Source of the DNA: Promethearchaeota archaeon
GTDB taxonomy: Archaea; Asgardarchaeota; Thorarchaeia; Thorarchaeales; Thorarchaeaceae
NCBI GenBank assembly: GCA_027031765.1
Contig: JALVPN010000181.1
Coordinates: 1-27,065, forward strand
Reading direction: 5' to 3'
Length of the DNA stretch: 27,065 nucleotides
The notes under the pieces were generated by a model that saw only the letters and a list, made by a program, of their open reading frames with translations, was not told where the DNA came from and searched no databases. The position numbers were made by a program, and so were the translations under genes. Position 1 is the first letter of the stretch, and every line of letters begins with the position of its first letter. Shown piece by piece: positions 2,121 to 6,683 of this stretch.

Positions 2121-3761
2121 TCAACTGGAGCGGAGTCGTGCGAGGTTGAACACAGCGCCGAGGCCCACCAGACCGAGGACTATGCCTGTCAGCGGCCAGC
2201 CCGCCGAGATGCTGTTCATGAACAGGTCTGACAGGCTCGGCACGACCCTGAGGCCGGCGTCGCGGATGCTCTTCGTGTAGCTCTGGCCCTCGAAAGTGTA
2301 CGTCACCCGGCCATCGAAGAACCCGTACACACCCTCATACTCAGGCACCACCGTATACGTGAGGCTGGTCTCCGCACCAGGCGCCAATGACGGGACGTGG
2401 GCCACAAGACTACCATCAACACTCAGCTGCGGGTATACTTCGGTAAGACGGGCATCGCTGATCTCAATGTCACTGATGGTGTCGCTGCCGGCATTTGTGA
2501 CCGTGATTGTGACCGTGACCGGAGAGCCCACCGTAGGGCTGGCAGGCGAGAACGTCCTTACGGCCTGCACAAGGGGGGGGTACGAGGTCTCGTTGAAGTG
2601 GACGATGTAGTCAGACTGAGGGCCGAGCATAGAGGCCGCCCAGAAGGCCGTCCCATCGGTGTAGTAGCTGTGGTTCGCATCGTAGGGCTCAATGCCCGTG
2701 ATGCTAGTGTCCCCCATGTCAATGGCCACAATGGACATGCCCTGGGATGTCGAACTGAAGGGGGTGATTGTGCCTGTCGACCCGATTGCATCGCTGAGTA
2801 ACATCTCTGTGTCGCCGGCCTGCACGATCTGGTCGCGGACGAACCCGCCAATGCCGACGGCAACAGGCCCCTGTACTTGTGGGGCCTGAGCAATGACGTA
2901 GTCGACAAACCCGTGGCGAGGCCGGTTCATGCTGCTGGAACTAACGAGGCCAACCAGGTCTTCGATGTGCGGCAGACCAACAAGTGCGGCAGCAGAGCCA
3001 GGAGCACTGACGAACAGGTCAGCGTCCATTGCCGTGAGCATGCCCCCGGTAGTGAACGTGCCGACGATGTTCTGGATGAGCTGGCTCATTGGGTTGGAAA
3101 GGGTGTATACGAACAAATCAAGGGAGCTGATATTGCTGCCACCAGTGTTGTTCCCGCCACCAGGGAACATTGACTCATCAAGTCGAATTGAGAACACGCT
3201 CGAAACAGATATGGCAAGCGGTGACCCTGCAAGCTGTTGGACGACCTGTGCCATCCTGCCCGCTGCGACACCCTCCTCAAGGTCCATGTACACACCGACA
3301 ACAATGCTGAACTCGTCGCCGAGGTAGTCAATGATGTCACCAGGACCGCCTATGCCGCCGTCCTGTGCCGGGGCAAACCCCAGGTCACCGGGACCACTAT
3401 CATTGCCACCCATACCCATGAGCTCGAACAAGTAGTCGAGGAGCTCGCCACGGACCGCGAGCACCGCCACAGCGAGACAGCCATCATACATGTCCGCGTC
3501 AAGGTTGAAGACCCCCGTCACACCGGGCAGGGCAATCTGGCCATACAGTACAGCGGGCCGGCCCTCACTGTCAACGTGAGTGTAGATCACTTCTGCCCCG
3601 GACTCTATCAGTTGCGGGAGCATCTCCATTGGGCCTTGGGAAGACCCGGTCACGACAACGGGACCTGGAGGCAGCAGCACAGACGTAGCCACTGGGAGTA
3701 CAAGGAAACCGACCATGAAGAGGAGTGCCAAAGACTCTGTACGAAGACGCATTACCAACAA
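2121..3761 (-). CDS. Secreted, C-terminally membrane-anchored protein with a C-terminal DUF11/BatD/TRAP-beta-like Ig domain
   Basis: N-terminal signal-like helix (RLRTESLALLFMVGFLVLPV). Ig-like segment VRTFSPASPTVGSPVTVTITVTNAGSDTISDIEISD...SLAPGAETSLTYTVVPEYEGVYGFFDGRVTY. C-terminal TM (GWPLTGIVLGLVGLGAVFNL) followed by ARLRSS. GGAGGT SD present. Confidence 0.75.
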   Translation of the reverse strand: MLVMRLRTESLALLFMVGFLVLPVATSVLLPPGPVVVTGSSQGPMEMLPQLIESGAEVIYTHVDSEGRPAVLYGQIALPGVTGVFNLDADMYDGCLAVAVLAVRGELLDYLFELMGMGGNDSGPGDLGFAPAQDGGIGGPGDIIDYLGDEFSIVVGVYMDLEEGVAAGRMAQVVQQLAGSPLAISVSSVFSIRLDESMFPGGGNNTGGSNISSLDLFVYTLSNPMSQLIQNIVGTFTTGGMLTAMDADLFVSAPGSAAALVGLPHIEDLVGLVSSSSMNRPRHGFVDYVIAQAPQVQGPVAVGIGGFVRDQIVQAGDTEMLLSDAIGSTGTITPFSSTSQGMSIVAIDMGDTSITGIEPYDANHSYYTDGTAFWAASMLGPQSDYIVHFNETSYPPLVQAVRTFSPASPTVGSPVTVTITVTNAGSDTISDIEISDARLTEVYPQLSVDGSLVAHVPSLAPGAETSLTYTVVPEYEGVYGFFDGRVTYTFEGQSYTKSIRDAGLRVVPSLSDLFMNSISAGWPLTGIVLGLVGLGAVFNLARLRSS

Positions 3762-4316: not shown

Positions 4317-4722
4317 AAGCCAACCAAAATACTTGCTACCGGTTATTGGGAGATCCTCCTGAGAACCTGTCAGACCTACTCCCTTACAGGAAGCGGACCT
4401 ATTAATCGTTTCGAGAGATGGCAGTCCCAGTAATCACCAGCCCAGAGGACGCACACACCCATACTAGGACGGGAGGACTGTGAAGGGCCCTCCATGGGCC
4501 ACTGGCAGACGGGGCGCAGTAGACAGCATGCATTGTAGGGACGGCAACCGTGCGATGCCCCGACGGTCGAGACTGACCTATCAGGGGGTCAAACACGCGT
4601 CCTACGCAAAGCAGAAATAGTATGTTCGCAAGACGAGCGCAGTGGCATGACCGTCGGAACACCGGGCACGGGAGCCGTTGTGCATGCACCAACACAAGCA
4701 ACTAGATAGAGACCCGACCGAG

Positions 4723-5076
4723 ATGAATAGTGACGACACTCTCTCCTCGGTATACGAGCTGATCCAGCTCGTGGCATCCCTCAACGACACCAAGCGTGCT
4801 ATACTGTTCGCCCTAGCACACATCTATCCGAGGAGCGTGAGTGGTGTCCAGCTCAGCCGGCTCATAGGATACAGTGGCAAGTCACGGAGTCTATACCGCG
4901 GTGTCCTGAGCCACATGCAGGAGGACAAGATGATACAGGTCGACCAACTGACACCCAAGCTCTACGCAATAAGGATCAACAACGAACACCCACTCCTCCG
5001 TGTGCTAGTAGAGCTGTGCCGTCAGTATGGCGGAGAGATGCGCGACATCTACTTGCAGGCCATGGAGGGACGTTGA
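4723..5076 (+). CDS. Winged helix-turn-helix protein (putative transcriptional regulator)
   Basis: LNDTKRAILFAL...VSGVQLSRLIGYSGKSRSLYRGVLSHMQEDKMIQVDQLTPKLYAIRIN has the helix-helix-recognition helix-wing pattern. Start taken as the ATG at 4723. Confidence 0.7.
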   Translation: MNSDDTLSSVYELIQLVASLNDTKRAILFALAHIYPRSVSGVQLSRLIGYSGKSRSLYRGVLSHMQEDKMIQVDQLTPKLYAIRINNEHPLLRVLVELCRQYGGEMRDIYLQAMEGR

Positions 5077-5077
5077 A

Positions 5078-5680
5078 GTGGACAGACTGCTACTCCAGGC
5101 ACGGGGCCTGTACGCCGACGGGCGGAGGACGGCAGTCGCAGCCATGGCCGTGGTGCTGGCGGTCACAACAGTCCTCTTCTACTCCGGTGGTCTTCAGGTC
5201 ATAGAAACGGAGCCCCTACCATGGGCCCCGCCAGGGTGGACACAGGGACTCGAAGTGGTGACATCCTTCAACACAGTCCTGTTCTTCTTGGCCTTCTCGC
5301 TGATGGTTTTCTTCTACGCCTTCTGGTCGTGGGCCTTCCTCCCGAGCCCGGCGGTCCTCTATACAGTCGGTGTCCTCCGCGGGATATTCGGTGAGACGGC
5401 AAGGATTGTCCACCGCATGGGTAGACGCTTTCGGGTGCACCTCGACGCGGACAGATACGTCGATGTTGTGTGCAGGGTGAGAGACCATGCATCTGGGGAG
5501 TGGTTCGTGTTCGAGCTCAGGTCCTCACCGGTAATGTGTTCACACAGCCAGGAGATTGCCATGCGGCACGGGATGCGCTTGGACAGGGGGTGCTTTGCCA
5601 CCCGTGTCAGCCACGACGAACTGCATCACCGCACGCTCCTCATGACCCGGGCGCTCGCACTGTGTCACCCCACCACCTAG
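5078..5680 (+). CDS. Hypothetical membrane protein (2 N-terminal TM helices plus soluble C-terminal domain)
   Basis: GTG start 1 nt after the upstream stop, with GGAGG at 5064-5068. Hydrophobic stretches AVAAMAVVLAVTTVLFY and TVLFFLAFSLMVFFYAFWSWAFL. Confidence 0.7.
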   Translation: MDRLLLQARGLYADGRRTAVAAMAVVLAVTTVLFYSGGLQVIETEPLPWAPPGWTQGLEVVTSFNTVLFFLAFSLMVFFYAFWSWAFLPSPAVLYTVGVLRGIFGETARIVHRMGRRFRVHLDADRYVDVVCRVRDHASGEWFVFELRSSPVMCSHSQEIAMRHGMRLDRGCFATRVSHDELHHRTLLMTRALALCHPTT

Positions 5681-5798
5681 CCCTGGACCCGTATCACCGG
5701 CTGCACGCCAGCACCTGCACTGCATGGCCACTGGGCCAACACCCCACAAACCTATTTCTCTGGTCACGACACCAGCTCTCTGGAGTGGACCAAAAGTG

Positions 5799-6185
5799 AT
5801 GCGAGTACGGCGCACTGTTGAGATAGCAATGTCGACGTCCGACCAGATCGTAGGAGCCTGCGCGTTCACCTACGAGGGACGGACTGTCTACTGGACAGAG
5901 AACATGGACATTGGCGACGACGTGCCGGCACTCCTCCAGGCCTGGCGTACGGGGGCAAACAGCGTGACCATCAAGGGCATCCCGTTCGTAGTCGTCATGG
6001 GGGGCAATGACGGGCTCGTGGCCGTCAACCCCGACGGGGCGGTGTCGCTCGTGTGCGGTACGGGGAAAGGGGTCTGGTTCGTTGCAGTATTCGCCACAGG
6101 GGACGCCGACAAGTACACCTTGCTCAAAGAGTGTGTCCAGGCAGCCAAGAACATAGAGGTCTCCGTGTCGGTGTTCGACGTGTGA
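5799..6185 (+). CDS. Profilin-like protein (Asgard-type, divergent)
   Basis: 128 aa: helix, IVGACAFTYEGRTVYWTENMDIGDD, ALLQAW, SVTIKGIPF, LVAVNPDGAVSLV, WFVAVF, C-terminal helix. This follows the Asgard profilin pattern (G-x-v-x-x-T-x-N-W-D, S-v-T-I-x-G-v-x-Y, A-x-N-x-x-G). GGAG lies upstream of GTG5796/ATG5799. Confidence 0.65.
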   Translation: MRVRRTVEIAMSTSDQIVGACAFTYEGRTVYWTENMDIGDDVPALLQAWRTGANSVTIKGIPFVVVMGGNDGLVAVNPDGAVSLVCGTGKGVWFVAVFATGDADKYTLLKECVQAAKNIEVSVSVFDV

Positions 6186-6236: not shown

Positions 6237-6683
6237 TCATTCCCGGGGCCGGAGCGGGTACTGCTCAGCGATTATCCGGGCCACTATCCCGAGGATTGCA
6301 CCAATCCACCCGAGCGACTGTCCCAACTGGACGACCAGGTCCATAGTTAGTGTGCCTGTGGCGACGAGCTGGACCAGCGCCATGAACAGACCGAGCACAG
6401 CCATGCCGACGAACAGGAGCAGGAACGTGCGACCTGTCCGGACACGCGGCGTGGTGAGCAGGAACCCAGACACCACAACGCCAATACCGCCAATCACCGT
6501 GAGCACCGACAGGGTGCCGAGCACTATCTGGACTGACAGGGCAGCCTCGTCGCCGAGCAGCTGTCGTACAGCCCCAAGAAAGTCGCCGAGCACACCAATG
6601 GCACCGCTCGCCCCGGCAACCACCAGCAAGAGGCCGCCGATGACGCTCAGCAAGAGCGCACTCCTGTTGTGAATGGGCCGCAT
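6237..6683 (-). CDS. Hypothetical integral membrane protein (about 4 TM)
   Basis: 148-aa ORF with four Gly/Leu-rich hydrophobic helices and basic residues in alternating loops. Confidence 0.75.
   Translation of the reverse strand: MRPIHNRSALLLSVIGGLLLVVAGASGAIGVLGDFLGAVRQLLGDEAALSVQIVLGTLSVLTVIGGIGVVVSGFLLTTPRVRTGRTFLLLFVGMAVLGLFMALVQLVATGTLTMDLVVQLGQSLGWIGAILGIVARIIAEQYPLRPRE

Follow-up and report, generated by a model that had tools for sequence, protein, structure and literature searches.

Profilins of the Asgard archaea are among the few eukaryotic signature proteins with tested biochemistry, and they have been used to infer how the actin cytoskeleton was regulated before the eukaryotes. 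A stretch of 27,065 nucleotides (hereafter the window; positions 1 to 27,065 of the forward strand of contig JALVPN010000181.1, GenBank assembly GCA_027031765.1, from a Promethearchaeota archaeon of the GTDB family Thorarchaeaceae) carries at positions 5799-6185 (+) a gene that an initial annotation, made from the sequence, took to encode a divergent paralog of these proteins. The gene, here given the working name P3, raises two questions: whether its product is a profilin, and, if it is, whether it still acts on actin.

In P3, one family of Thorarchaeota possesses a third profilin, unannotated and with altered signature residues, and three profilin-fold genes there accompany a single conserved actin. 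The P3 product would appear, with rather less confidence, to be a specialised isoform that still binds actin. The count of three comes from scanning the genome to which the window belongs (2.95 Mb, 229 contigs, 95% complete) with Pfam Profilin, which located the canonical profilin locus on contig C110 as two tandem genes, L002:1447-1824 and L002:1844-2290. Since the same genome carries this canonical pair, P3 is a third paralog. The first gene of the pair encodes 126 amino acids (aa), is close to the structure 7PBH in the Protein Data Bank (PDB), and has 108 relatives that are 59-76% identical to it, a few of them with the Pfam family PF00235 and one named 'profilin family protein'. The second, in which N-W-D and S-Y are retained, shares 32% identity with the first and goes unmatched by Pfam. 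Of the 85 genomes of the family 80 have the pair, and these include genomes devoid of P3.

Profilin homology and predicted fold

When the single P3 sequence was searched against the PDB, the profilins matched only weakly ('Profilin' 7PBH, E 0.005; Odin profilin 5ZZA, E 0.026). With the P3 family profile the E values were 5.4e-7 for 7PBH and 0.004 for 5YED, and a comparison by hhalign with 16 canonical Thor and other Asgard profilins gave a probability of 97.2% (E 4.5e-11) over 106 columns. A phmmer scan of 1.84 billion representatives with P3 retrieved three archaeal proteins of 122-128 aa that carry the canonical N-W-(D/N) and G-I-K-Y (3e-7 to 8e-4), the other matches being fragments of the P3 family and some repeat proteins. 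The language-model clusters nearest to P3 are profilin clusters. The top of the single-sequence PDB search was occupied by the designed 'Cake' beta-propellers (E 4e-20), which were rejected. These matches are an artefact, because a stretch of about 30 residues (D-G-x-L-x-A-I-N-P-D-G) scores 8-9 bits per repeat and these scores accumulate from one repeat to the next; searched with the family profile, the propellers reach no better than E 0.001.

The structure predicted by AlphaFold2 from an alignment of 25 P3 members (A1) has a predicted local distance difference test (pLDDT) score of 91 and a predicted template-modelling (TM) score of 0.86. Its elements follow in the order helix, two strands, short helix, five strands and long helix, the profilin order that had been proposed from the sequence. 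Both terminal helices lie on one face of a sheet of seven antiparallel strands, and a three-strand insert follows the short central helix. Seven strands with a three-strand unit in this position separate profilins from roadblock and longin folds (Robinson and colleagues, PMC10933270). In a Foldseek comparison of the model with the PDB, Odin profilin stands at the top (E 2e-10, TM score 0.84/0.90, root-mean-square deviation 1.6 A), and the Odin and Loki profilins together span TM scores of 0.83-0.84 and E values of 2e-10 to 5e-8. After Odin come Loki profilin-1 and -2, the yeast profilin and Thorarchaeota 7PBH, and then the profilins of Acanthamoeba, plants, poxviruses and human.

Roadblock folds do enter the Foldseek list, from rank 22 only, and P3 might on that account be regarded as a GTPase-regulatory module of the roadblock/LC7/MglB or longin type rather than as a profilin. 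This is very improbable. The roadblock/LC7/MglB structures (9JUE, 1J3W, 6HJM) have five strands and a long central dimerisation helix, whereas the P3 model has seven strands with the profilin-type insert; neither that five-stranded arrangement nor a sequence match to Robl_LC7 was found in P3, which bears no sequence similarity to these proteins. On the combined testimony of profiles and predicted structure, P3 is a genuine profilin-fold protein, homologous to profilins. The proposal of a divergent Asgard profilin paralog is thus borne out by the profile-profile comparison, by the predicted fold and by the canonical tandem pair in the same genome.

Signature residues, conservation and ancestry

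P3 was compared column by column with an alignment of canonical profilins (A3), by hhalign and by alignments to hidden Markov models (HMMs). The parts of the gene to which the comparison refers are as follows (window coordinates).

5799..6185, plus strand: P3 coding sequence, 128 codons and stop; from the list of open reading frames (ORFs), orthologs spanning 100% of it and the AlphaFold2 pLDDT of 91; GTG 5796 is an equally possible start
5802..5834, plus strand: helix alpha1, residues 2-12, basic, with the near-invariant R-x-x-R-T-x-x-I; from secondary-structure assignment (DSSP) of the model and conservation
5898..5909, plus strand: E-N-M-D, residues 34-37, at the canonical N-N-W-D position by the alignments; Asn kept, invariant Trp replaced by Met
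5976..5987, plus strand: G-I-P-F, residues 60-63, strand beta4, at the canonical x-V-K-Y position; Lys lost, Tyr replaced by Phe
6027..6038, plus strand: N-P-D-G turn, residues 77-80, between beta5 and beta6, aligned with the canonical N-x-x-G; N77, P78 and G80 invariant
6054-6056, plus strand: codon of Cys86
6057..6077, plus strand: G-T-G-K-G-V-W, residues 87-93, beta6-beta7 hairpin, the best-conserved block; T88, G89, K90, G91, V92 and W93 invariant
6129..6149, plus strand: E-C-V-Q-A-A-K, residues 111-117, C-terminal helix alpha3, with Glu and Gln for the canonical invariant Asp and Arg; C112 invariant
6132-6134, plus strand: codon of Cys112

It had been suggested that TENMD replaces TxNWD, GIPF replaces GxKY and AVNPDG replaces ATNxxG. 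These motifs are found at residues 33-37 (TENMD), 59-63 (KGIPF) and 75-80 (AVNPDG), and the suggested correspondence holds, because both the HMM and the profile-profile alignments place them on the canonical positions. From the columns that are invariant in A3, P3 keeps the Gly ahead of strand 2, the Asn in N-W-D, two residues of L-V-x-x-N-x-x-G (the Val and the last Gly), and the A-A of the last helix. The Tyr of K-Y and the Asp of the last helix are changed conservatively, to Phe63 and Glu111. Where A3 invariably has N-W-D/N, G-x-K-Y and the helical D-x-x-R, P3 reads N-M-D, x-x-F and E-x-x-Q, so that of the signature just the Asn, an aromatic and an acidic residue are retained. The canonical Lys of K-Y aligns with human K69, a residue that contacts actin.

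P3 has invariant blocks of its own, namely N-P-D-G (77-80), G-T-G-K-G-V-W (87-93), D-x-D-K (102-105) and E-C-V-Q-A-A-K (111-117). Its first helix is basic (R2, R5, T6), but the proteins as a whole are acidic, with a median isoelectric point of 4.7 versus 5.3 in the canonical proteins. Each P3 protein contains 2-5 cysteines, of which C112 is invariant and C86 common, versus none in the canonical Thor profilins of A3.

The polyproline-binding cluster was taken as human W3, Y6, W31, H133 and Y139, mapped through the 7PBH equivalents and the alignments. The replaced Trp of N-W-D corresponds to W58 of 7PBH. The polyproline-site Trp, equivalent to human W31, is W53 of 7PBH (Inturi et al., bioRxiv 10.1101/2021.08.06.455371), and the near-invariant Tyr31 of P3 sits at that position. 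At the other polyproline positions P3 has Arg/Val, Thr/Val, Lys117, Ile119 and Val123, human Y6 being replaced by Thr/Val and Y139 by Val. Because just the W31 position is aromatic, P3 appears from the alignments to lack the aromatic platform, a feature that is not universal in Asgard profilins.

Of the known profilins, thorProfilin (PDB 7PBH; Inturi et al., bioRxiv 10.1101/2021.08.06.455371; Survery et al. 2021, PMC8410842) and its ortholog L002:1447-1824 resemble P3 in lineage, fold and size (profile E 5.4e-7, 20-21% identity). They share with it the NWD Asn, the Leu-Val-x-x-Asn-x-x-Gly strand and turn, the Ala-Ala-Lys/Arg of the last helix and the aromatic residue at the human W31 position. 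Unlike thorProfilin, P3 constitutes an orthogroup of its own, long-stemmed in the tree, and stands alone at another locus; it has Met for Trp, x-Phe for Lys-Tyr and Glu/Gln for the helical Asp/Arg; it has no flexible N-terminal extension, and its basic first helix has no Tyr equivalent to human Y6. P3 is also the more acidic, has cysteines where thorProfilin has none, and has no Pfam match versus 21.8 bits. The Odin profilin and Loki profilin-1 and -2 (5ZZA, 5YED/5YEE, 5ZZB) are 16-18% identical to P3 and keep the NW(D/N) and K-Y that P3 has lost; judged by length and alignment, P3 is without the 'Loki loop' of the Loki proteins. The second gene of the tandem pair is like P3 in being fast-evolving, unannotated, without Pfam match and carried by the same organisms. 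In contrast to P3, however, it still has NWD and (S)Y, falls into one clade with the canonical Thor profilin, adjoins the canonical copy and occurs where P3 is absent, whereas P3 is unlinked to the pair and present in fewer genomes.

The low sequence conservation of Asgard profilins and their multiple duplications were already known (Akil and Robinson 2018; Survery et al. 2021, PMC8410842). No description of the P3 subfamily was found in the literature searched, in which Asgard profilin surveys were partially covered, and an earlier description is possible. Surveys of Asgard profilin variation have reportedly been given by Ponlachantra et al. 2023 (Bioessays) and Akil et al. 2020 (Curr Opin Cell Biol).

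A search of a collection of 5.8 billion proteins returned 48 relatives of P3 (101-138 aa, 49-61% identity, E 1e-34 to 1e-48), and most of the orthologs span 97-100% of the 128 residues. All source names given are 'hypothetical protein', all named organisms are Candidatus Thorarchaeota, and none of the 48 has a precomputed Pfam domain. Since P3 is invisible to both Pfam and annotation, surveys of Asgard genomes that rely on them may miss it in profilin copy numbers. A profile scan of 400 Asgard genomes with A1 gave a bimodal result: scores of 170-248 bits are confined to the GTDB family to which the genome belongs, where about 60 of 85 genomes have the gene, as a rule just once, and in all other Asgard families, including the sister family (one genome), the scores are <=55 bits and the matches carry canonical signatures.

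A1 contains 22 invariant and 31 near-invariant columns. The replacements in P3 are fixed family-wide (N35 invariant, M36 and F63 >=90% conserved in the 25 orthologs). For the three ortholog pairs with unsaturated synonymous change, the ratio of nonsynonymous to synonymous substitution (dN/dS) is 0.07-0.24. P3 is under purifying selection. A spurious or decaying frame without function could be argued from the public annotation, 'hypothetical' and with a shorter start, and from a 167-codon frame that overlaps on the opposite strand. Set against this are an intact ortholog in the same slot in about 60 genomes, the 22 invariant positions, the low dN/dS and the high-confidence fold prediction, and the idea has practically no probability left.

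In a maximum-likelihood tree of 49 sequences P3 forms a clade of its own (support 100/100). The two canonical Thor copies form another clade (100/97), outside which P3 is placed with weak support (81/71). A single Thor clade that includes P3 is not rejected by the approximately unbiased test (p 0.42). The sequence data thus fit both a duplication within Thor, followed by rapid divergence, and an older origin of the paralog.

Actin isoform or another partner

In the profilin-actin complex (2BTF) profilin touches actin with strands 4-6, with the loop that joins strands 5 and 6, and with the opening turns of its C-terminal helix. That the three-strand motif of profilins contacts actin is also stated in PMC10933270, and the Odin and Loki profilins nearest in fold to P3 (5ZZA, 5YED/5YEE, 5ZZB) were crystallised bound to actin (Akil and Robinson 2018). 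The invariant residues of P3 in A1 cluster in residues 74-95 and 102-117. The family has one conserved actin, L016:1474-2613, which is 89-93% identical across genera. Because the invariants of P3 lie on the elements with which profilins contact actin, and because there is this sole conserved actin, the reading of P3 as a specialised actin-binding profilin isoform with altered contacts is favoured; by analogy and on the predicted model, its chance is put at slightly better than even.

If so, P3 would act as a monomer-binding regulator of the single conserved actin of the organism. It would dock through the usual profilin face, formed by strands beta4-beta7 together with the N-terminal half of the C-terminal helix, where the invariant residues cluster. 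The chemistry of the contact would be altered, the canonical Lys, Arg and Trp being replaced and the G-T-G-K-G loop and E-C-V-Q-A-A-K helix being fixed. No aromatic polyproline-binding cluster would take part, and P3 would be a specialised and dispensable isoform rather than a housekeeping profilin.

Four observations weigh against this reading. The first is that Pfam Profilin (PF00235) has no match even at E 10 in P3 or in any of the 25 orthologs (25/25); an NCBIfam search with P3 likewise gave nothing meaningful. The profile check that had been proposed thus succeeded with 7PBH and the canonical Asgard profilins and failed with PF00235. The model is insensitive here, however: its gathering score is 25 bits, and L002:1447-1824, the canonical Thor profilin of the same genome, reaches just 21.8 bits. 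Secondly, three replacements run through the whole P3 family, namely Trp of N-W-D to Met36, Lys of K-Y to Pro/Ser and the helical Arg to Gln114. Thirdly, the stem of the P3 clade is 2.96 substitutions per site long, and a stem of about 3 substitutions per site fits functional change as well as relaxed drift. Fourthly, P3 is an accessory copy and not essential to actin dynamics, because two genera have the slot but cleanly lack the gene. The genes for the membrane protein and the four-transmembrane (4-TM) protein that otherwise flank P3 lie just about 60-100 nucleotides apart in G331 (genus g9) and G323 (g7). No P3 was found elsewhere in these two genomes at E 0.001 or better, and both keep the canonical pair.

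Much of the same evidence would be expected if P3, although a profilin by descent, had lost actin binding altogether, its remade face recognising another partner (for example a membrane or regulatory protein) or sensing redox through the conserved cysteines. To the replaced Trp, Lys and Arg, the very long stem and the dispensable gene may be added the gain of new invariant blocks, and the 2-5 cysteines with the invariant C112 where the canonical Thor profilins of A3 have none. The position of the gene points the same way, in that P3 follows co-directionally a winged-helix gene and a gene for a membrane protein with two or three helices, and faces the 4-TM gene, in 13 genera. An alternative partner, however, is indicated by none of the tests run, and the fold of P3 is nearest to profilins crystallised with actin. 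The entire neighbourhood is syntenic in the family, its members are separated from P3 in one genome and persist without it in two genera, and the divergent actin-like protein encoded in this genome has no counterpart in the rest of the family. Such a loss of actin binding is accordingly rated below an even chance, as a tentative but serious alternative. The variant in which P3 keeps the fold but has an actin face rebuilt by loss of Trp, Lys and Arg and gain of the G-T-G-K-G loop, the invariant Cys and the E-C-V-Q-A-A-K helix, and has either acquired a partner other than actin or restricts its binding of actin to certain redox or membrane states, is considered rather unlikely. Were P3 to have changed its job, no earlier case would be known of an archaeal protein that descends from profilin and has taken on a new function.

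For the actin-binding isoform as for its alternatives, P3 offers a natural case of a profilin face that is still strongly constrained while the Trp, Lys and Arg that canonical profilins hold invariant have been exchanged. It bears on which positions the archaeal profilin-actin interface needs, and on whether isoforms have already specialised in these archaea in a eukaryote-like manner.

The divergent actin-like gene, L017:1294-2409 (genome G000, contig C111), encodes 371 aa, about 32% identical to the actin of the genome, and reaches 120 bits with Pfam Actin. No ortholog was found in the other 85 family genomes, where its best matches are the ordinary actin at about 32% identity. As a dedicated partner of P3 it was rejected, being found in a single genome; it cannot be the family-wide partner because it is unique to this genome.

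Gene boundaries and neighbourhood

The G+C content at P3 is about 60%, similar to the remainder of the window. Other frames at the locus are a longer one from ATG 5724 and the 167-codon frame on the opposite strand, both without support from the further analysis. The ortholog N-termini read M-x-M-R-V-K-R-T or M-R-V-K-R-T, and because these fit, the start of P3 is placed at ATG 5799 or at the adjacent GTG 5796, ATG 5724 and ATG 5829 being unsupported. The P3 match in the genome-wide profile scan spans 5796-6182. The public gene call, P0002 (118 aa), uses the internal ATG 5829, and loses ten residues of a helix conserved across all orthologs. No RNA run is listed among the sequencing runs with P3 DNA, the sole run that contains the sequence being a hydrothermal-vent metagenome, from which the sequence may stem.

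The slot of P3 is constant in 24 loci from 13 further genera. It consists, in order, of a gene for a TRAP-beta/CARDB-like surface protein and a 181-aa gene on the minus strand, the winged-helix gene, the membrane-protein gene and P3 on the plus strand, and the 4-TM gene and ATP-binding cassette (ABC) permeases on the minus strand. The neighbours in the window are as follows.

2121-3761, minus strand: TRAP-beta/CARDB/DUF11-type protein gene, 546 aa, Pfam TRAP_beta at E 7e-10, in the same neighbourhood across the family
4678-5076, plus strand: winged-helix gene upstream of P3, 65-77% identity, with MarR-like look-alikes
5072-5680, plus strand: gene for the membrane protein with two or three helices, whose likely GTG start overlaps the stop of the winged-helix gene; no Pfam match
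6237-6683, minus strand: 4-TM protein gene, 148 aa, four predicted transmembrane helices, convergent to P3, no family match, position kept throughout the family

The AlphaFold2 model of the membrane protein (pLDDT 87) has a C-terminal alpha/beta domain, for which nothing significant was found in the PDB, the best matches being CesT-type chaperone folds (E 0.05). In G336 (L026, C10:13232-21621) inserted DNA lies on both sides of P3, about 2 kb of it towards the membrane-protein gene and about 3.3 kb towards the 4-TM gene. A functional linkage of P3 to the winged-helix, membrane and 4-TM genes was rejected: their order is kept in 13 genera, but the neighbours persist without P3 in G331 and G323. 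Adjacency is weak evidence of function here, because the wider neighbourhood is equally syntenic across the family. In a tree of three flanking proteins the base is poorly resolved and G323 forms a long branch, so that both loss and late gain of P3 fit.

Two further groups of genes resemble profilins faintly. On contig C144, at L003:977-2293, three consecutive genes of 120-153 aa give a faint Pfam Profilin signal (E 0.2), and by their sequence pattern they look roadblock/LC7-like rather than profilin-like. The matches of the P3 profile in family f22, another large Asgard family (for example G204:C122:6542-6778 and G239:C54:265042-265299), and in the sister family (L036, G311:C34) lie within frames of 205-245, 400-435 or >300 aa, which suggests that they are profilin-like or roadblock-like domains fused to larger proteins.
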